From: Eledone cirrhosa
Lineage: Eukaryota
Direction of reading: 5' to 3'
DNA length: 64,000 nt
Assembly: GCA_964016885.1 (NCBI GenBank)
Contig: OZ024745.1
Span: 15,128,001-15,192,000, forward strand
How positions within the stretch are numbered: position 1 is the stretch's first letter; each line of letters begins with the position of its first letter. This document shows, piece by piece, positions 655 through 64,000 of this stretch. Made by a program: the position numbers and the translations under genes. Below the pieces are notes generated by a model. It saw only the letters and a program-made list of their open reading frames with translations. It did not search any database and was not told the DNA's origin.

Positions 655-3170
655 TCAAACCATATTTAATGCTGGTCTATATTTTTGAATAAACATATTT
701 TCCTTATTTATTCGTATTTGTTCTGTTGTATTGTCAGCGCAAAGGTAAAATGGAAGACTTAGAATGTGGGTGTCTTATTACTTGCGCATATATCTAGATG
801 TGCGCTTAGTGGTTTCTGTCTCGTGGTTGGATCTCGTAATTGTTGGCGATGAACTGTCATTCTGTTTCTGAGTGTGAGTTTAGTTTGTCCTATATAATCT
901 TCATTGCATCCTTTACATTTAACGGCATAAATTAGATTTTTTGGATGAGCAAGTGAAGTGATTTTTTACATCAAAATTTTGTCCCGATTGAAATGTATAC
1001 GTGTTGCCTTCAATGAGGTGAGTGCAGGTTCCACAATTAGAGCGACCACATTTCTTGGCAGTAGGTTGTGGGTTTGTGGTAGGTAATTTGGCATTGGTGA
1101 GTAATGTTTTCAGTGATTTCGGTTGTCTTTTGCTTTTGATTATTTTGTGTGCTTCATGGGCTTTTTTCATTCTTGGGTCTTGTTTTAGTAGTGAGATGTT
1201 CTTGTGAATAGTGTTGTAAGCTTCCACATTTCTTGGGTTGTGTGTTGAGATATATGATAGAATATTGGACGTACCTTGAATTTGTTTCTGTTTCCGTAAT
1301 TCATCAATGCCTATTGCTTTAACCCTTTCTATTCCATTATTTATTAGTAATGGTGGGTACTGTCTTTCGAGTAGAATTTCCTTTAATTCTTGAAGTCTTT
1401 TATTTCGCGTTTCATAATTGGAGACAATTGTGCAAATTATTCTTGCTAGGTTAAAAGGAATGTTCGTCTTCGTGTGCTTTGGATGGTTGGAGGTGAATAG
1501 CAGGTATTGTTTGGAATCTGTTGATTTGTAATGTATGTCAGTTTCAATATTTGTGTCTTTTTTTAAGATTAGATTAAGATGTCCAGAAATGGGAGCTGAT
1601 CTTGGCTGTATTCCATTGTGAATTGGATGTGGTTATTGATGCCGTTTATTAAGATTTTGAAATAATTCAGTTGGTCGAGTGTGTGGGACCAAAGAATGAG
1701 ACAACCATCCAAGTAGCGTTTCCAATTCTCGGATAAATATTTGTGGAAGTTCAATCCGTATTTTGATTTGGACTGTTCATATATCTGGACTTCTAAGTAT
1801 GCCATGGCTAAGTTGGCATAAGTTGGAGCGGCTTTTGTCCCCATCGCAGTCCCCGATATTTGCTTGTATGTACTGCCATTGAAATAAAAAAGTTGTTCTG
1901 TAACATAAATTTTAATCCCTCGGTGATGAAGCTTTTTTCTATTCTGCCAGGTATCTCATTGGGATATTTCTCTAGCCAGAAACCTATTGCTTCTAGTCCG
2001 TATTGGTGTGGGATCGTTGTGTAGAGATTCACTACATCGAAAGACACAATAATAGTGTCGTTGTTGACATGTTTGGGGAGGTGGTTTAAGAGGTCCAGAT
2101 CGTCTGTTACAAGGCTTGGTATGTGTTTGAGAATTGGTTTTAGTAGTATGTCTATAAAGTTGCTCAGTCTGTGTGTTTCACATTGTGGGTCCGCTACAAT
2201 TGGTCTTAATTTAAGGTCTGTGGGGTATTGTTTTCACGCAGGCTGAGGTGGATTGTTTACAGGCATCGTTAATTATTTTACACTTGTGGATCTTTGGAAG
2301 TCCGTAAAGATTACTGGTTTTGTATCCAAAATGTGTTAAATAATCGCGTTCCTTTTTAGTTAGGTCTTCCTGGTATCGACAAATCACTGTGTTTAATCTG
2401 GTCATTGTTTTTGATTGCTGGTAATTTTATTTACTCTTTCATAGTAATTAGTATTTTGTAAGAGAGAGAACATAGAATTTTTATATTTTTCAGCCTCCAT
2501 AATGACAACAGTACTTCCCTTGTCCGCTTCCTTAATTATAATGTCCGTATTGTTTTTTAGTTCATGGATAATCTCCCATTCCCTTCGTTTCGAGTTGGGT
2601 TTGGGTTTAGGTTGCGGTAGTTCATGGTATGGTAAAGTTGCTATGTGGTCACAGAATTTGTCCAGAACTCTGTTTCTACCTTTTGTTGGGTTGTAGCTGC
2701 TTTTATTCCGTACAATTGATTGGTCGTTATTCTCCTTGTCAAAAAATTCCTCTGTGAGACGTAATTTTCTACAGAAGTGTGAGATATCGTCATTTATCTC
2801 ATTGAGGTTAGAGTATTGTGGTGTTGGTTTGAATATAAGTCCTTTGGAGAGAAATTTTACTTGTTGGGCTGAGAGGTTTGTATTTGAAAGGTTGATTATT
2901 TTCGGTTTTTTCAACATCGGTTTGTGCCACCGGGTGTCGTGGGTCCAGTAGCTTTGGTCTAAAAAATGATTTTTCTGAAATGTTTTTTCAATAGTACCAG
3001 TAATGCACTGGGTAATTGCTGGCCTTGTGCCTAAAGTAGAAACAATTATTATATCTAATGGCATTTCCGCTGTTGTTGTGTGGTCTTGTACAGAAGTTTC
3101 GGACGTATTGAGGTTCGGTTTGTTGATAGTACGGGTTGTAGATTTTGTCCCTTGTGTGGGTTGGGATCTA
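655..3170 (-). mobile_element. Penelope-like retroelement (Neptune-type), frameshifted RT + Cys linker + GIY-YIG endonuclease
   Basis: Collinear minus-strand ORF pieces: INLSNTNLS..LSKGLIFKPTP..FCRKLRL..IIIKEADKGSTVVIM (2402-3271); LYGLPKIHK (2211-2405); SFDVVNLYTTIP (RT motif A, 1808-2047); MGTKAAPTYANL..WKRYLDG..LPFLDI (1569-1844); CGRSNCGTC linker (919-1227). My manual translation of ~935-655 gives LIYAVKCKGCNEDYIGQTKLTLRNRMTVHRQQ..ENMFIQKYRPALN* (GIY-YIG). Confidence 0.93.
2991..3051 (+). mobile_element. 3' fragment of the abundant tRNA-derived SINE inserted inside the Penelope ORF
   Basis: agtaccagtaatgcactgggtaattgctggccttgtgcctaaagtagaaacaatt is nearly identical to the 3' end of full copies (e.g. 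38134-38321). Confidence 0.9.
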
Positions 3171-3223
<53 letters not shown>

Positions 3224-3379
3224 TAGGGGTGTATATGAAACACTTACTATATGTTTATATACAATGTACATATGAGAGCCTCGCTATCAAAGTAAGAATT
3301 ATTTTCGTTATGTTATGAAAAGGTATATTTTTTCTTTTTTGCTTTGTGAAAACGCCAAAGATATCACAGTGGTATTCAG

Positions 3380-23972: not shown

Positions 23973-24881
23973 TCAGGTTTATTTACGTTTATAATAAATA
24001 AATCTCTGCAACGTCCTTTCGACATTTGGCAAAACAGAGGTAGGACACCACTAGAAACCAATAGAATCTTAACTCAAAATAAAATTAAGAGTAAATACTT
24101 ATCCGTCAATTTGGAAAAATCTACAAATGCACTATATAGTCTTAAAAAGACTATTTCACGAAACTTTTCGGTGGGGTTAGTCACGTTTGAATCGTTCCTC
24201 AGTAGTACCCAATACGTTAACTAATAGTCACAGCTAAAATATGCCAGAGGGGAATTTAAAAGCAGGCTAGTCAAACCTCGTGTGGAATTGAATTAATAAA
24301 CACACATGGAAACAGGGCTAGTGACGCCAGAATGAGACGAATGTCTGTTTACAAGAGACAGCAGTCAAAACATTCCGAAAAAAAAAAATATATATATAAA
24401 GAATTAGTATATCTACCAACATATATATACAGATATATACCTATGCCAGCAAATATATAGGTTTTGTCTTAGTAACTTTGTGGTTCAATGCAAGGGGATG
24501 CAGAACAATTATATGAAAAAGGTAAAATAAGAAAATTATAGTAATTAGCTTACTTAAATTTCACTCCAACTAATTAGTTACATCTGTATATATATGTTGG
24601 TAGATATACTAATTCTTTATAATTATTTCCAAATTATTTTGTTGAGCAAAAATTTGTCTAAATTACTACTATGGTTCATAGTATTAGCTTGGCTACTGCA
24701 TTTTTAACACCCCACTCCTCGATGTCACGTGATTGATTCTTTTGAATTTGCCACCGAACAAGAAGGCAGTAATTTTTTCAGTGTCTTGGAATTTAGTCCC
24801 CGCTTGCTCTTTTCCATCCACTGAATTATTTTTGTATAAGTTCCCTGTGTCCACGCATCGCCAGGTATCTTAGCTGAGAAT

Positions 24882-24966
24882 GACTCCCTGATAAAGAAAA
24901 GGTTTTTCCGTGATCTCCATTTGGAGACTATGTATATTCCCTTTCAGAAACTAATTAGTTGGAGTG
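24882..24966 (+). ncRNA. Hammerhead ribozyme copy 1 (core mutated to CTGATAA)
   Basis: actcc CTGATAA agaaaagg..ccctttca GAAAC taatta GTT ggagt. Confidence 0.7.
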
Positions 24967-25410
24967 AAATTTAAGTAAGTAAGCTAATTACTATAATTTT
25001 CTTATTTTACCTTTTTCATATAATTGTTCTGCATCCCCTTGCATTGAACCACAAAGTTACTAAGACAAAACCTATATATTTGCTTGCATAGGTATACATC
25101 TGTATATATATATGTTGGTAGATATACTAATTCTTTATAATTATCTCCAAATTATTTTGTTGAGCAAAAATTTGCCTAAATTACTACTATGGTTCATAGT
25201 ATTAGCTTGGCTACTGTCTTTTTATCACCCCACTCCTCACTGATTAAGCTCGATGTCACGTGATTGATTCTTTTGAATTTGCCACCGAACAAGAAGGCAG
25301 TGATTTTTTCAGTGTTTTGGAACTTAGTCCCGCTTGCTTTTTCCATCCACTGAATTATTTGTGTATAAGTTCCCTGTGTCCACGCATCGCCAGGTATCTT
25401 AGCTGAGAAT

Positions 25411-25495
25411 GACTCCCTGATGAAGAAAAGGTTTCTCCATGATCTGCATTTGGAGACTATGTATATTCCCTTTCAGAAACTAATTAGTTGGAGTG
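25411..25495 (+). ncRNA. Hammerhead ribozyme copy 2 (intact core boxes)
   Basis: actcc CTGATGA a gaaaagg tt tctcca tgatctgcatt tggaga ctatgtatatt ccctttc a GAAAC taatta GTT ggagt. Stem I actcc/ggagt; stem III is the palindrome ACTAATTAGT. Confidence 0.85.
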
Positions 25496-26534
25496 AAATT
25501 TAAGTAAGTAAGCTAATTACTATAATTTTCTTATTTTACGTTTTCCATATATATATATATATATATGTTATACAATTTAAGATACATTTAATGTAGGTTT
25601 AACTACATTAAAAAAATTCTTTCTTTTATTAATACATTAGGTAGCCAAAATAAAGCACGTAATCAAAATTATTTCACTTATACTTTACATTCTGTTTGAC
25701 ATATAAATAGATTTGCTAAAAAGATCCCTCCGATGGGAGAATCACGGGTTGGCTTCTACTAAGGAGGCAATAATCTCTGAGAGGCCTAAAGTTAATCTAT
25801 TTAATTTTTCTGTGTACTGAGGGAACAGTAAATAGTGTCTATATATTTCATTTTTATAACGAACAAAAAAACTGCATAGTGTTTGTGTCCGAAATGTGAC
25901 CGAGAAAGAGAGATGAAATTATAGATTAAGATGATGGAGTATAATTTGAAGGTGAAGAATATTTTATTCATAGATTTTCTGCCAAGTGGACACTCTCCAA
26001 ATGTCAGTGTAACTTTAGAACAATCCGTTGGAGAAGCAGCTACACTAACTCAACCTCTGACATCTTCATATACTTTGTTGGGGAAGTGTTTGCTTATATT
26101 CATAATTATTAATCTTCTAATCAAATTAAATAGGCAGGCCAATCAGTCCATTTCATATCATAATTAAATTAACCTCACAGTTGTAAGGACGGCTGCTTTC
26201 ATATTAATATGAGATATAATTGGAACTAGCATTGTAATAGTTAATTTGTTTCTGGGAAATCTAGAACGAATTCCTTGCGTTAATGTAGATAATTTAATAT
26301 TAAATTCTGAAATGAGAGTCCTTCACTCTTATTGTTTTATTCATATGGAATATCATATTGTTAAAGGAATTTTGTCGGTTTATTGAATGTTGTATGTATT
26401 AGAAAGTGATGTCATGATGTAGAAGACTTTATAATGTATAGTTGCATTATTGATGAAATTCTAAAGCAAGTCGAGCTGCTCCTGTCATTACCAAAATGAA
26501 AGGCAAACATTAAAAACAACATCGATTGTAACTA

Positions 26535-35699: not shown

Positions 35700-36435
<736 letters not shown>

Positions 36436-36440
<5 letters not shown>

Positions 36441-37727
36441 ATAAGAATATTTATATTTATATATGTTTGATATTCTATAAATATGTAGGGTAGTACTAAG
36501 TACTAGCTGATTACCATGGTGATATCGAAGTTGTTGGGTGTATTCTTGCGGGTCCATAGTTTGTCTTCAAATTTAATTATTGTTTTCCTGGCCGCAAGGA
36601 TTATATCTACCTGGGATCTAGTGAGTTCACTATTGTTCATGGCCATTATTAATGGTTTATTTAGGAGGATAGGTGAAATAGAGGTGTAGTAGGAGTTCAT
36701 ATGAAGTTGGATGAATTTCTTATTATTATTTTCATTAATACCATTAAACCATTCGATTACTTCACTAGTGTTTCCCCAGAGGTTAAAATGAATTTTTTGT
36801 TTAATTTGGAGGATTACTTTATCTAAAAAATGTTTGCTAATAATACCAATATAGGATCTGGATGGGCAAATAAGTCTAATTGAGGGGTTGGTATTGAAGT
36901 CATCCTTTTGGTCTTTCAGAGAGAATCGTGGGGGATTAGGGGTGTACGGTTGAGTGTATCTCTCTAGTCCTAATTCACATATTAAACTACGGGCTTCAAT
37001 ATTTATGTCATCCAGGTTTTTATGAGATGTTTTGTTTGTAGTTACTGTAAAGTTCTTTATATATAAATTCTCTATATGTATCGTAATCTAGGCTATAAAT
37101 GTTTTTAATTTTATCAGCTACTACTAAGATATTCCTATTCTTATTAAAGTTTTTTTTATGGTGGAATTTAGGTTATTTAGGAAGTTGTTCTTCCTATTGT
37201 AGTATTTCCTGTACTTAATCTTTTTAACAAGTGACACAAGGTCGTTTTCAAATGAGTCCAGTAAGATATTGTGCGGAGGGCTTTTATATTTTATATGTTT
37301 TGAAGCCGTATGTTTCAAACGAAGGTGCATCTTGTTCTTTCACAGCGCGGTTCCTATCATAGTGGAAGGCCCTCCATCTAACTCTTTTAATAAAGGAGTT
37401 GACACTATTAATCAGTAGTTTTTCGTATGTATCCCTAGATGGGATAGGTATGTTCTTTAGAGACAAAGGAAGATAGTCTTTGATCAACATACCGGTAATT
37501 CTATATATGTCAGCTCTACTAGAAGGAACAGAATTAGTAATATGAATATTTATATTTATATATGTCTGATATAACTATAAATATGTAGGATAGTATTAAG
37601 TACAAGCCGGTTACCGGTATGACACAAGGCTCAATGCAAATTTTCAAGTGTTTTACGATACAAAGTGTTAAAACGATCAAATTTTAGTTTAGAACATTTA
37701 TTTGTTGACAGTTGTTTCTTCCAGAGG
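36436..37727 (-). mobile_element. Naiad-type Penelope-like element, 5' part (leader + N-terminal domain + RT start), pseudogenised
   Basis: LSLKNIPIPSRDTYEKLLINSVNSFIKRVRWRAFHY; SFENDLVSLVKKIKYR; manual translation FSLKDQKDDFNTNPSIRLICPS..NLWGNTSEVIEWF; YYTSIS..RKTII..WTRKN..FDITM. The leader begins with the HHR 3' half (GAAACaactGTC at ~37720-37705); 36436-36520 duplicates leader 37537-37620. Confidence 0.88.
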
Positions 37728-49442: not shown

Positions 49443-50194
49443 CTAGCAGAATGGCCCGGCGTTACTCGGGCTTCTAAACATAGATTGGCATGTTTATCCC
49501 TCCTTTCTGAAACAGTACAGAGAAGTACGGAATACCTCGGCCTGGGGATGGTGTCTACATTTTGTGCTTATAAAAAAAATTCATAGATTACCAGGTGTTT
49601 AACTGTGTGCCTGAGAGTAAAATCTTCAACACACGAAAGCTAAGACGATATGGTTAAGTAAAAAGGCAGTCGACAAACCGAACATGTATTTGTTGTGCTA
49701 TGGTACAATGAAAGTTACAGAGCAGTAAGATTGTGGGACTGCAGTGGTGGAGAGCATGAAGGAATTTAGTTGAATACTTTTAAGGTTACAAAAATCTACC
49801 CAATCTGATATAGACCGAACTGATATAACGGATGCCGAACGCTGCGGAGTTACTATTAGGTTCACCATCAACAATTTCAAGGGATGTACGTTTAAGTAGG
49901 GATAATATAGTCTATAGAGAGAGGTAACTCTTTCAAAATACTAATGAGTTGTCTCTCTTGAACATTGTAGACAAAATTGCCGAACTGACAAAAAGGGCTT
50001 AAAGTTTTAGTGAAATAAAATGCCTTTAACAACAGAAAATTGAAAAGTAAAATCTGCAGTTAATATCTTTAGACCGCAAGTAATATATCAATGCAAGTTT
50101 GGAGTCAATCGGGGTAGAAATGTGGATTTTTATAGACTTTCCAAAATTAGGGGACACACACACAGGCAACTTCAGTTTTATATATATGTATAGA
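49443..50194 (-). mobile_element. Complete non-autonomous Helitron (~750 bp)
   Basis: Minus strand starts A|TC tatacatatatataaaa and ends with hairpin gcccgagtaacgccgggc, then cattctgCTAG|T; no TSD. Confidence 0.8.
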
Positions 50195-50387
50195 TTACAC
50201 TGCTACGTGACAAGTTTATCCACCCAAATCTCTTTTTTCTTCTTTTTTTTACTCATATTTCCGCTTTTTCTCTAATATCTTACGAAGACGGACTTAGTCC
50301 GAAACATCATCAATTTCTGTTCAGTTAAGCGTCAAGCTATTAACTTTAATTTTTATTTCGTTCTTATTTTGAAATTTTCGTTCTCTC

Positions 50388-50461
<74 letters not shown>

Positions 50462-50468
<7 letters not shown>

Positions 50469-50572
50469 TAACAGATTAAAGTTTAAGCAAAGAATCGCTG
50501 CTTTGATTTGATATATATTTATCCTTATCGAGCCCACTTTGGATTTTAGTCTTCAAATTTATTATTATTACT
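50462..50572. mobile_element. Rearranged scrap of the 38.7-kb Naiad pLTR family inside (TA)n
   Basis: Inverted piece attaaaataacag..gctgcttt fused to forward piece atttgatatatatttatccttatcgag..ttattatta. Confidence 0.8.
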
Positions 50573-50589
50573 ATATATATATATATATA

Positions 50590-50896
50590 TATAAAGAAAA
50601 AGGGATGAAATCGAAAATGCAACTAAAGTCTTATTTTTTAAAAAAAGGTGAGTTGAGATGGAGGGTCTGTGGTTTTTCTCACATCTGAGATGTGAGAAAA
50701 ACCACAGACCCTCCATCTCAACTCACCTTTTGAAAAGCAGAAGAACTGCGAAACCGGTAAAGGAACCAAATAAAAATATATATATTTTTTAAAAAAATAA
50801 GACTTCAGTTGCATTTTCGATTTCATCCCTTTTTCTTTATACTTCCACTCGTGTAGGACACCTCGGTTATTTTTCATTTTGTAAAAAAAACCTCAC

Positions 50897-50905
<9 letters not shown>
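50590..50905 (+). mobile_element. Doubly folded Penelope-type pLTR fragment with a decayed minimal HHR (50726-50763)
   Basis: Outer inverted repeat 50590-50640/50790-50841; inner perfect hairpin 50644-50731; cctt TTGAAAA gcag aagaa ctgc GAAAC cg GTA aagg. Confidence 0.75.
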
Positions 50906-50984
<79 letters not shown>

Positions 50985-50986
<2 letters not shown>

Positions 50987-51823
50987 CATTCATTTGATTT
51001 ATTGATTTATTGATATTTTTTCTGAGTGTCCCGAATCTTCCAGATCGCAATTTTTCGGTCGTACGGTTGATTATAGACTTGTTCTATGTGTGACGGTATT
51101 TTAACGATAGTTATAGCTCTGATTTATCTGAATTATTGAGCCCTCTGCCGCTCATTTCGAATTTTGTTTATCGTGAACTCGTGCGCCGATTTTTCGATAC
51201 TCGATTATTCTACTATATTTAGCTCTAGACCTAGCTATTGACCAGTTAATTTTATTGTTCATTTTTTGTCGATTCTATTAAATGATGAATAGCTCCTGTT
51301 TATTTTAACATGTCTATTGAGCACTCTTATTCGATATGTGTATTTCCACATTTTCCCGAATATTTTTTGCGGATATAGAGGTTATCTCCCTTGCTGAATT
51401 CCATGTGCGTTTCTTCAGCCTGGGTTATGCCTTTTCATTCGTTCGGACAAAAGCTCGTTGAGGAAGTAAATTTCCCGTCCGCTGGCTTCTAGAAGTCTTA
51501 TATATTTTTATGTGAGCTGATAGAGGGCAGTTTAAGGATCTACAGAAACCCAAGAAGCTAGATTTACCATCTTTCTAGCGGGTCCGAGTATGCTTTTTAC
51601 ATTCATTTGATTTATTGATTTATTGATATTTTTTCTGAGTGTCCCGAATCTTCCAGATCGCAATTTTTCGGTCGTACGGTTGATTATAGACTTGTTCTAT
51701 GTGTGACGGTATTTTAACGATAGTTATAGCTCTGATTTATCTGAATTATTGAGCCCTCTGCCGCTCATTTCGAATTTTGTTTATCGTGAACTCGTGCGCC
51801 GATTTTTCGATACTCGATTATTC

Positions 51824-51831
<8 letters not shown>
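50985..51831 (+). mobile_element. Non-coding retrozyme-like element: 613-bp unit in a ~1.4x tandem within (TA)n
   Basis: 50985-51218 appears identical to 51598-51831; HHR at the unit junction; no ORF. Confidence 0.85.
51453..51589 (+). ncRNA. Large type I hammerhead ribozyme (extended stems II and III; C3->U)
   Basis: gctcg TTGAGGA a gtaaattt..(~60 nt)..ggatctac a GAA ACCC aagaa gctaga tttaccatctt tctagc GGGT C cgagt. Stem I gctcg/cgagt; GUC cleavage site at 51584. Confidence 0.72.
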
Positions 51832-51906
<75 letters not shown>

Positions 51907-51909
<3 letters not shown>

Positions 51910-52180
51910 GGGAGGGGTATGGGGCGGCCTTTGACTTAATCTTCACTTGTAGTCAAGATTGACATTTCTATTGTCCTGGGTTCTCGCCATAGGCGACGGA
52001 AAGCTGGTATGAAAGAACTTTTGAACATACAACTATTATAAATGTTGGTAAAATAATATGATGTAGTTGCATTTGCCCTTTGCCTTAAGTTACGTAGAAA
52101 ATCATACGAATTAGAGAAAATTCTTGTACTGAAAGCGAAGTATATGTTAGATAATGTGCTTGAATTAAAATACATTTCAT
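51907..52180 (-). mobile_element. LINE 3' end fragment (L2/CR1-group-like)
   Basis: RNLRQ..CMFKSSFIPAFRRLW resembles the terminal FK.SF.P...RLWN motif. Confidence 0.5.
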
Positions 52181-53004
52181 TTTGTCAGCCATTGGTGAAT
52201 GTCTTGTGTACTAAAATATTTACATCTATCTTGTGTGGCTAGTTTATGAATTAATTTATTGAGAACGTTTAAAAGAAATATTTTAATACATTATATCAAG
52301 GTGATATCATAATGTTGATATGAGTGTGAAATGATATATCACGTCACTGATTTATGTTATATATGTGTGAAAAGCTATATTCATCGGATTGAATGCGAGT
52401 GGTATTTGTCGATATTATAATTAGTGGAAGTTTTCACAGAACACATAAACGTCTCTGTAAGTTTAAAGTGTTGAATTATACAAGAATAATGAATGATTTT
52501 GTCGTATTACAAAGAGCTCATCAAACATTCGAAATTATAGCCAAGTTCAATCGTACGATGTAATTATCTTTCTATGTGTCTGTATTGAATTGATGAAGCA
52601 GTTCGTTAGACAAGTGTTTACAACTATCATTAGTTCACATACCTGCCAATCACTGAGCCAGCTGAAGACACCATCAAATCATTTTATAGTTTTTTTTGTT
52701 TAACTCAAGAGATCAATCAGGAACAAAAAAGCATTAAACATCAACTTCCTTTTTAAAAAAAAAATTGATTAGATTCATGGAGAAGAGACATAGCCTATAA
52801 TTATCTATGAAGTTATATTTTCATAATACGATCATTGAAGATATTGCTATGTTTCGAGCAGGACACATCATAAAGTATCAAATACAAAATCAAGCAAAGA
52901 GAAAATCTTTCAAATATCAAGATGAGATTTATCGACACTAAAGAATGTTGCAAGAAATTTTAAAAAAAATGAACTAGATATAGTTGAGTAATATTTTTTT
53001 CTAC

Positions 53005-53192
53005 TTTTAATATAAAGTCATCAATTTGAATGGGGGGGGGGGGGTCGATTAAATCGACTTCAGTGCGTTACTGATACTATATTATATCGACCTCGTAAGG
53101 ATGAAAGTTAAATCTAACCCAAGTAAAGGGCCGTAACTACATGCCACAAAACATGTTGTCCAACGCTCTAACGACTCTGTCAATCTCCCACC
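53005..53192 (-). mobile_element. Degraded tRNA-derived SINE
   Basis: gtcgattaaatcgac..cagtgcgttactg..tatcgacc.cgtaaggatgaaag. Confidence 0.75.
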
Positions 53193-53477
53193 CTATAGTT
53201 GAGTATTAATAGATACTATTTCTGGATCGTTCTCTATTTGGTTTGTATTGACACTACTTATTTGAACTCAAAAAGTACACAACACTGCATACTAAAGTTT
53301 GGTATTTTAACACAGGCGAAATAAAATATTTTATTGAAAACTTTAAATGCAAAATAATGTGATACAGAACGGGTGATAGCTGAATGATATTGATATTAGA
53401 TAAATACAAAGACCAAAATCCAGAGAAGACTCGATAAGTGCTGTGTATCTATAAAAGTATATTCAAATTCGTAGAGC

Positions 53478-53581
<104 letters not shown>

Positions 53582-63232: not shown

Positions 63233-63919
<687 letters not shown>

Positions 63920-64000
63920 CAAGGCTCTGATGCCATCAACACTATAAACACAGAGCTGGCATATCTAAGAACTGACTAACTGCCTGATGAGGACATAGCC

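Follow-up and report, generated by a model that had tools for sequence, protein, structure and literature searches.

A 64,000-nucleotide (nt) stretch of genomic DNA from Eledone cirrhosa (hereafter the window) contains, at positions 50985–51831, a tandem insertion with a 613-nt unit. It is probably a young copy of a non-autonomous retrozyme without long terminal repeats (a non-LTR retrozyme) that targets TA microsatellites, carries a conserved type I hammerhead fold in its unit, and was copied about 1.4 times around an RNA circle by a reverse transcriptase (RT) likely borrowed from a Penelope-like element.

The insertion belongs to a large family. A DNA search of the 3.0-Gb, microsatellite-rich genome returned 2,633 first-look candidates, 40 of which were scored. 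Exact matches to one family 29-mer numbered 1,634, and terminal junctions with (TA)n numbered 1,517, with none for the reversed control in either case; both counts are lower bounds, as diverged subfamilies are missed. The copies are mostly short and dispersed, and consist of head-to-tail units with a type I hammerhead motif in each. A tree of the subfamilies (57 of 100 rows kept after thinning) is mostly ladder-like, with long basal branches.

Layout and age of the window copy

One full, non-coding unit (50985–51597, plus strand) has its 5′ end at the main truncation hotspot of the family, and is followed by a partial second unit (51598–51831, plus strand) identical to 50985–51218. The first-pass annotation of this DNA had described two identical 234-nt repeats in a 613-nt tandem, ends that merge into (TA)n, a recent insertion, and a restart of the repeat about 13 nt after a ribozyme cleavage site, and all four points hold. 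The exact repeats show no differences over 234 nt, with a period of 613; runs of (TA)42.5 (50903–50986) and (TA)40.5 (51827–51907) flank the insert; and the GUC of the predicted cleavage site lies at 51582–51584, so that the repeat resumes at 51598, 13 nt past the predicted cut. The (TA)n target on the 5′ side (50903–50984) also belongs to the tail of an upstream Penelope-like insertion, which is truncated. The fixed 3′ terminus of the family (51814–51831, plus strand) runs into the 3′ (TA)n 229–234 nt into the unit, and an internal TATAT (51214–51218, plus strand) is the unit's own match to the target and the likely priming site. The unit has a GC content of 36.7% and a longest stop-free frame of 54 aa, and when folded as a circle gives a z-score of −3.9 against 40 shuffles.

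The recent age of the window copy is supported by the absence of differences between its repeats (0/234), compared with an average of 1.6% (342/21,204 sites) between sibling units at other loci, and by the 99.2% identity of the closest other copy. It carries two private changes: a T to C change at 51540 that breaks the fourth stem II pair, and a G to A change at 51587 that turns a U-G pair of the family into U-A, strengthening stem I.

A conserved hammerhead fold

The first-pass annotation proposed a hidden hammerhead with a stem II domain of about 80 nt, a two-part stem III and a GUC site at 51584, and this is well supported. All parts lie on the plus strand. The 5′ strand of stem I (51449–51457) contributes five conserved, core-proximal pairs (51453–51457 with 51585–51589) and a distal extension, read by eye, in which 51449–51453 pairs with 51593–51597 across a 4-nt bulge. 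The core strand (51458–51465) consists of UUGAGGA (51458–51464; U3 U4 G5 A6 G7 G8 A9) plus an extra A, the family pattern being Y-UGA-N-R-A-A. It leads into a stem II domain of 78 nt (51466–51543; 73–81 nt across the family) closed by G10.1-C11.1, a pair found in 28 of 28 representatives. A second extra A and then G12 A13 A14 A15.1 (51544–51548, with GAAA at 51545–51548) are likewise invariant in all 28. The extra A residues on either side of the G10.1-C11.1 pair at the base of stem II (51465 and 51544) had been overlooked previously. Stem III (51548–51583) is in two parts, 4 bp and 6 bp separated by a 5-nt bulge, with compensatory changes in the distal helix. Cleavage is predicted after C17 of the GUC (51584/51585), and the 3′ strand of stem I plus a U-run completes the structure (51585–51597).

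The 149-nt region folds with a z-score of −3.3, none of 200 shuffles being as stable. Folding a consensus of 28 divergent representatives without constraints gave a three-way junction with an unpaired core, open at stem I, in which 97.0% of 502 cells were paired; sliding the partners out of register lowered pairing to 23–47%. Double changes were found in 30 cells, compared with 8.1 in shuffles (0/500 reached this value), in a test that ignores relatedness and uses a structure derived from the same alignment. Stem II pairing exceeded that of cross-sequence permutations (0/2,000). The covariation that had been suggested as a check on stems II and III was thus seen in stem II and in the distal helix of stem III, while proximal stem III is conserved rather than covarying. 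Pairing around the core is maintained in other copies, as the annotation required: U4 G5 A6, A9, G12 A13 A14, A15.1-U16.1, H17 and G10.1-C11.1 are invariant in all 28 representatives, which were partly picked by a core pattern, and the same core bases are near-invariant in 102 copies picked by similarity. Since unconstrained consensus folding recovers it with compensatory changes across subfamilies, the fold is real, evolutionarily conserved and under selection, and it is predicted to be self-cutting. The canonical geometry of loop 1–loop 2 contacts cannot apply to a 78-nt stem II domain. Rfam reported no hammerhead family at E-values up to 5 in 49500–53500. An alternative core, CUGAUAGA at 51517, was rejected because it forms no stem I and sits inside stem II.

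Core positions 3 and 8

The canonical 3–8 pair of hammerheads is a Watson–Crick C-G or U-A. The window copy has U-G, which is not Watson–Crick. This had been read as a C3 to U lesion that might have inactivated this particular copy, which is wrong, as U3 is the norm of the family: genome-wide patterns gave 1,921 matches with U3 versus 33 with C3 (2 not family), and just one pyrimidine at position 8. In the 102 copies picked by similarity, C3 does not occur at all, which rules out CUGAGGA as the consensus; G, A and U are all seen at position 7, and only G and A at position 8. Two CUGACGA pattern matches (L150, L151) were rejected as family members.

Among 100 loci, a sample enriched for C3 by design, the pair is U-G in 54, U-A in 31, C-A in 14 and C-G in one. 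The U-G state needs six changes on the tree and, because the deeper, basal branches carry A8, U3-G8 most likely arose from U3-A8 through an A8 to G change. U3-A8 is a known natural hammerhead variant (PMC4209133; PMC3088659). An alternative register, in which the pair would be U3-A8 with an insertion at position 7, is less likely: position 8 is purine-only, and an unrelated tandem in the window (24395–25551) combines C3-G8 with the same two extra nucleotides, supporting the register of the first-pass annotation.

Insertion ends and the nature of the template

Ends were mapped in 99 insertions, taken from the first 100 terminal matches listed on C1 with one (L089) dropped for having no unit sequence. 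The best-match set of the DNA search was left out of the 5′-end histogram because it favours full units. Choosing the 99 by their terminal junction fixes their 3′ end in advance, yet this end is also fixed in nearly all of the top DNA-search matches, and in the subfamilies examined its position is an internal TATAT or TGTAT, a match to the target.

The 5′ ends are ragged, with a pronounced hotspot. In 25 of the 99 insertions the 5′ end falls within 18 nt after the cut (unit positions 601–5), a 9.9-fold excess over background (P = 6e-17), and this stretch ranks first among all 18-nt windows of the unit. After refinement the enrichment is 10.1-fold, and 13.5-fold per TA/AT site, so that microhomology alone is insufficient to explain it. 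A 5′ end tied to the cleavage site, as the annotation had proposed, is therefore borne out. Its further suggestion that the 5′ end was itself generated by cleavage does not stand as worded: a single insertion in 99 starts exactly at the cut, the genome-wide junctions number 73 at +13 to +17 versus 2 at the cut (a rough comparison, made with patterns of unequal length and phase), and the cut site was traversed in 75 of 100 passes. With so many passes across it and so few starts at it, the template must usually have been continuous over this point, and cleavage alone cannot define it. A circle or an uncut multimer is needed as the template.

Multi-round copying is common. Insertions longer than one unit make up 34 of the 99, those longer than 855 nt 16, and the 5′ ends form a second peak at a distance of exactly one unit from the priming site. 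The other proposal of the annotation, that the enzyme ran about 1.4 times round a circle, agrees with these lengths and with the fixed internal 3′ end, although an uncut multimer may fit them as well. Differences between sibling units are mostly private (259/342, some edge noise included), and in 11 of 47 multi-unit insertions the units have in common a variant seen at no other locus; both observations agree with a single template for each insertion.

An uncut linear multimer, transcribed from tandems or arrays, is an unlikely but substantial alternative for the template, with the same element and helper. Cutting would then be rare, or would merely release the unit from flanking transcript, and the hotspot would reflect stalling at stem I. 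It would explain why the end peak sits at the base of the extended stem I and not at the cut, and why 12 of the 99 ends lie inside the fold, within 60 nt upstream of the cut; a ~40-kb array on C1 could be such a source, and the young core is predicted to misfold. The core bases, stems and 3–8 compatibility, however, have been kept across long-branch subfamilies, which argues that catalysis mattered, and no recurring position-specific pattern of units stood out by eye. A cleaved linear monomer, primed internally, with the enzyme jumping from its 5′-OH end to a 3′ end, either its own or that of a different monomer, would also account for stops near the cut, as failed jumps, and fusions to the 3′ end of the helper element (below) would show that template jumps occur there. 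It is decidedly improbable, as the cut-site sequence is almost free of indels in the 102 aligned copies, so that the jumps would have to be base-precise, and the ends are seldom at the cut itself.

Spread at the DNA level, as a satellite or rolling-circle DNA element with an incidental hammerhead, can be given almost no weight. Unequal crossing-over may have produced the long array, but the polar ends (fixed 3′, ragged 5′) on the strand of the ribozyme, the hotspot tied to the cut site and the covariation of an RNA fold contradict this explanation for the dispersed copies. The array itself (C1, ~81.709–81.749 Mb; L167, L168) has a 609-nt unit and normal family ends, and begins 12 nt past a Penelope-like 3′ end; it would hold about 65 units if uninterrupted, its ends having been seen and its interior being known only as pattern matches. 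At another locus (L166:2384–6427), two different subfamilies lie tail to tail, in opposite orientations, within ~470 nt.

The preferred reading, target-primed copying of a circle, would proceed as follows. Tandem copies would be transcribed and cut at GUC into 613-nt monomers, which would be ligated into circles. An endonuclease of the helper would nick (TA)n, and the nicked DNA would pair with the internal UAUAU of the circle, ~242 nt downstream of the predicted cut. Synthesis is of variable length and often extends beyond the cut and beyond one unit, and would so leave 5′-truncated head-to-tail copies. About a quarter of passes end 0–18 nt short of the cut; the enzyme would be halted there by a nicked circle or by stem I, and joining would then take place at whichever TA/AT match is nearest. 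On this reading the window copy would be a second-pass stop of this kind.

A candidate helper

The young Neptune/Nematis-type Penelope-like family of this genome is most likely the helper. A decayed element at 660–3283 of the window (minus strand) belongs to a family with intact 775-aa frames encoding RT and endonuclease (RT-EN) with a Cys linker; Pfam gave only weak RT and GIY-YIG matches for the decayed open reading frames (ORFs) of the window. The family has a ~4.7-kb unit, with an upstream ORF in addition to the 775-aa RT-EN, and many intact copies; 18 copies show a mean identity of 99.46%. Clade features (PMC8557442) suggest the assignment to the Neptune/Nematis type. A 3′-end fragment of this family, inverted plus direct (50590–50902, plus strand), is a neighbour of the retrozyme unit and lies 80 nt upstream of the window copy. 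It includes the element's own minimal type I hammerhead (50726–50763, plus strand), with a U3-A8 core, a 4-bp stem II, a palindromic helix III and a GUA site. Rfam miRNA-like matches at 50644–50730 were rejected, as they correspond to the inversion in this fragment.

Helper copies end at two internal TATA sites, giving alternative TA-ending termini. One of these sites agrees over 13 nt with the site at which the L158/L162/L166 subfamily would be primed, and at 10 of the last 11 positions with that of the window subfamily. Within ~260 nt of insertions, helper ends were found about seven times upstream and once or twice downstream, an orientation bias that is only suggestive, as flank lengths differ. 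Tight fusions of a helper end to the retrozyme hotspot number four genome-wide. In L126 (G000:C1 ~191.0158 Mb), a Penelope-like 3′ region is joined without a TA run to the hotspot, followed by 2.4 units, and this is possibly a template switch.

The unit might instead be no more than part of an autonomous Penelope-like element, either its truncated tail or its terminal repeat, which is what some other retrozyme-like calls have turned out to be; its fixed 3′ end, 5′ truncation, (TA)n target and partial tandem are a Penelope-type signature. This is very improbable and largely refuted: copies cycle several times through a 613-nt unit that has no ORF, no upstream flank among the 99 insertions matches five Penelope-like proteins in the sense strand within 1.2 kb, and the single terminal repeat compared has no homology to the unit. 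A tblastn comparison of the unit with the same number of Penelope-like proteins gave no match, no RT plus GIY-YIG ORF between terminal repeats was found for it, and it has no homology to 60 loci of two Penelope-like families. An LTR architecture was not seen either, the copies being permuted tandems with a fixed 3′ end and ragged 5′ ends (judged without a scan for a primer-binding site or polypurine tract), and the 99 insertions showed no target-site duplication beyond microsatellite sequence.

Several observations weigh against the circle reading or its choice of helper. The core is non-canonical: the window copy has U3-G8, at least two multi-copy lineages have C3-A8, and stem II is flanked by an extra nucleotide on each side. 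The C3-A8 lineages would mean either that the core is tolerant or that the element can be mobilised when cleavage is inefficient. The predicted best fold of the window subfamily places G7–A9 inside a small hairpin and is 3.7 kcal/mol more stable than the hammerhead fold (a difference of 0 to 9.1 kcal/mol across 28 copies), and weak activity of the whole young subfamily is plausible. Stem I and proximal stem III are conserved without covarying, the permutation test being not significant. The circle test is weak, as only 15 of the 47 multi-unit insertions have units that are closer to each other than to the most similar locus elsewhere. The helper–hotspot fusions could be nested insertions into TA tails, and alignment scores of the helper terminal repeat against eight unit sequences (one uninformative) lie within those of shuffles. 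Lastly, eight of nine Xenopus retrozymes are described as lacking in vitro cleavage (bioRxiv 10.64898/2026.07.22.740005).

Other hammerhead and (TA)n elements

The window carries further elements of related appearance. The unrelated, (TA)n-ended tandem at 24395–25551 (plus strand) has a unit of ~520–530 nt in 1.9 copies and a 5′ inversion. In its type I hammerheads, which lie at 24888 and 25417, stem II is 50 nt long with both extra nucleotides beside it and stem III is palindromic; homologues occur in seven of the loci fetched. The core of a third (TA)n-flanked element (35700–36095, plus strand; homologues in L109 and L133) is the canonical CUGACGA, at 35826; its stem II measures 54 nt and its site is GUA.

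Pieces of another, very abundant Penelope-like family (62,462 first-look candidates) lie on the minus strand at 63233–63964 and 36503–37087. This family has long AT-rich 3′ regions, and canonical hammerhead-like cores in a few loci; it shows no similarity to the retrozyme unit, in a comparison where its 3′ ends lie beyond most of the loci. An often inverted, (TA)n-tailed element with a U3-A8 hammerhead-like motif was seen at L026:860–965, in L038 and in many flanks; the motif, with a long stem II and a palindromic stem III loop, has 47 matches in the fetched loci. A further short repeated element lies beside (TA)n at 50464–50571 and at 36196–36390, the latter copy bearing a long inverted repeat, and was also seen in the flanks L083, L118 and L127.

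Significance and comparison with known systems

For the head-to-tail insertions that non-LTR retrozymes and Penelope-like elements make, the mechanism is still at the stage of a proposed model (PMC7229834; PMC4209133), and the present family supplies coordinates for it: priming is fixed at a site 242 nt away from the cut, the frequency of stops at the ribozyme can be measured, and there are multi-round copies. The same genome holds intact candidate helper ORFs that are nearly identical to each other, and the 3–8 pairs form a natural series (U-A, U-G, C-A, C-G) within one scaffold. Both the circle-priming model and the odd ribozyme core become directly testable. The ribozyme was missed by Rfam and would escape descriptors based on short stems and CUGANGA (PMC8557442), so that such families are probably undercounted.

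A more far-reaching interpretation is offered tentatively, as a possibility that we regard as less than even. The ribozyme may represent an undescribed hammerhead subclass, defined by extra nucleotides flanking a 50–80 nt stem II and by any pyrimidine–purine 3–8 pair, which cuts slowly so that circles survive and is common to at least two unrelated retrozyme families. The circles would copy the priming end of an active Penelope-like element, and the insertions would record target-primed reverse transcription round a ribozyme-made circle. If so, an intact helper enzyme is available for reconstituting circle-templated target priming. No description of the family or its core was found in the literature searched; subscription journals and supplements lay outside the search, and the latter may show similar hammerheads.

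The circle and priming model itself is published (PMC7229834; PMC4209133), the cycle proposed for non-LTR retrozymes comprising a circle, target priming and tandem cDNA (PMC7229834; bioRxiv 10.64898/2026.07.22.740005). As in the animal non-LTR retrozymes of the latter two papers, the units here are non-coding, low in GC (<50%) and tandem, with a type I hammerhead in each, and they range from monomers to long arrays alongside Penelope-like elements. The unit size of 613 nt is above the 150–450 bp of one account (PMC7229834) and inside the 51–972 bp of the other (bioRxiv 10.64898/2026.07.22.740005). Differences from the retrozymes described there are the 73–81 nt stem II domain, the long, monomer-type stem III, the extra nucleotides and the variable 3–8 pair, as well as the fixed internal priming site and 5′-end hotspot mapped in the present family. 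A 2026 proposal relates non-LTR retrozymes to the terminal repeats of Penelope-like elements, and matches to known elements, most of them Penelope-like, were obtained for 24 of the 57 Xenopus families (bioRxiv 10.64898/2026.07.22.740005), whereas the present family has no homology to the terminal repeat compared.

The terminal-repeat hammerheads of Penelope-like elements are mostly minimal and dimer-type, with a helix II of 7–8 bp, inside coding elements (PMC4209133), and the present unit differs on these points; U3-G8, C3-A8 and the extra A before G12 are not among the hammerheads described in the available text of that paper. Similarities to (TA)n-targeting Penelope-like elements of the Neptune/Naiad type are the (TA)n target, partial tandems, 5′ truncation, microhomology at 5′ junctions and obscured target-site duplications; an inverted 5′ segment is typical of those elements (PMC8557442; PMC3846280), and the present unit, unlike them, has no ORF. 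Hammerhead satellite DNAs of newt, axolotl and schistosome (summarised in PMC7229834 and PMC4209133) also form tandem ribozyme repeats and occasional long arrays, but the family described here consists mostly of dispersed insertions that are short and polar; its unit is larger, and its core departs from the canonical one. On the features that can be tested from sequence it is best classed as a non-LTR retrozyme, with what appears to be a new variant of the hammerhead.
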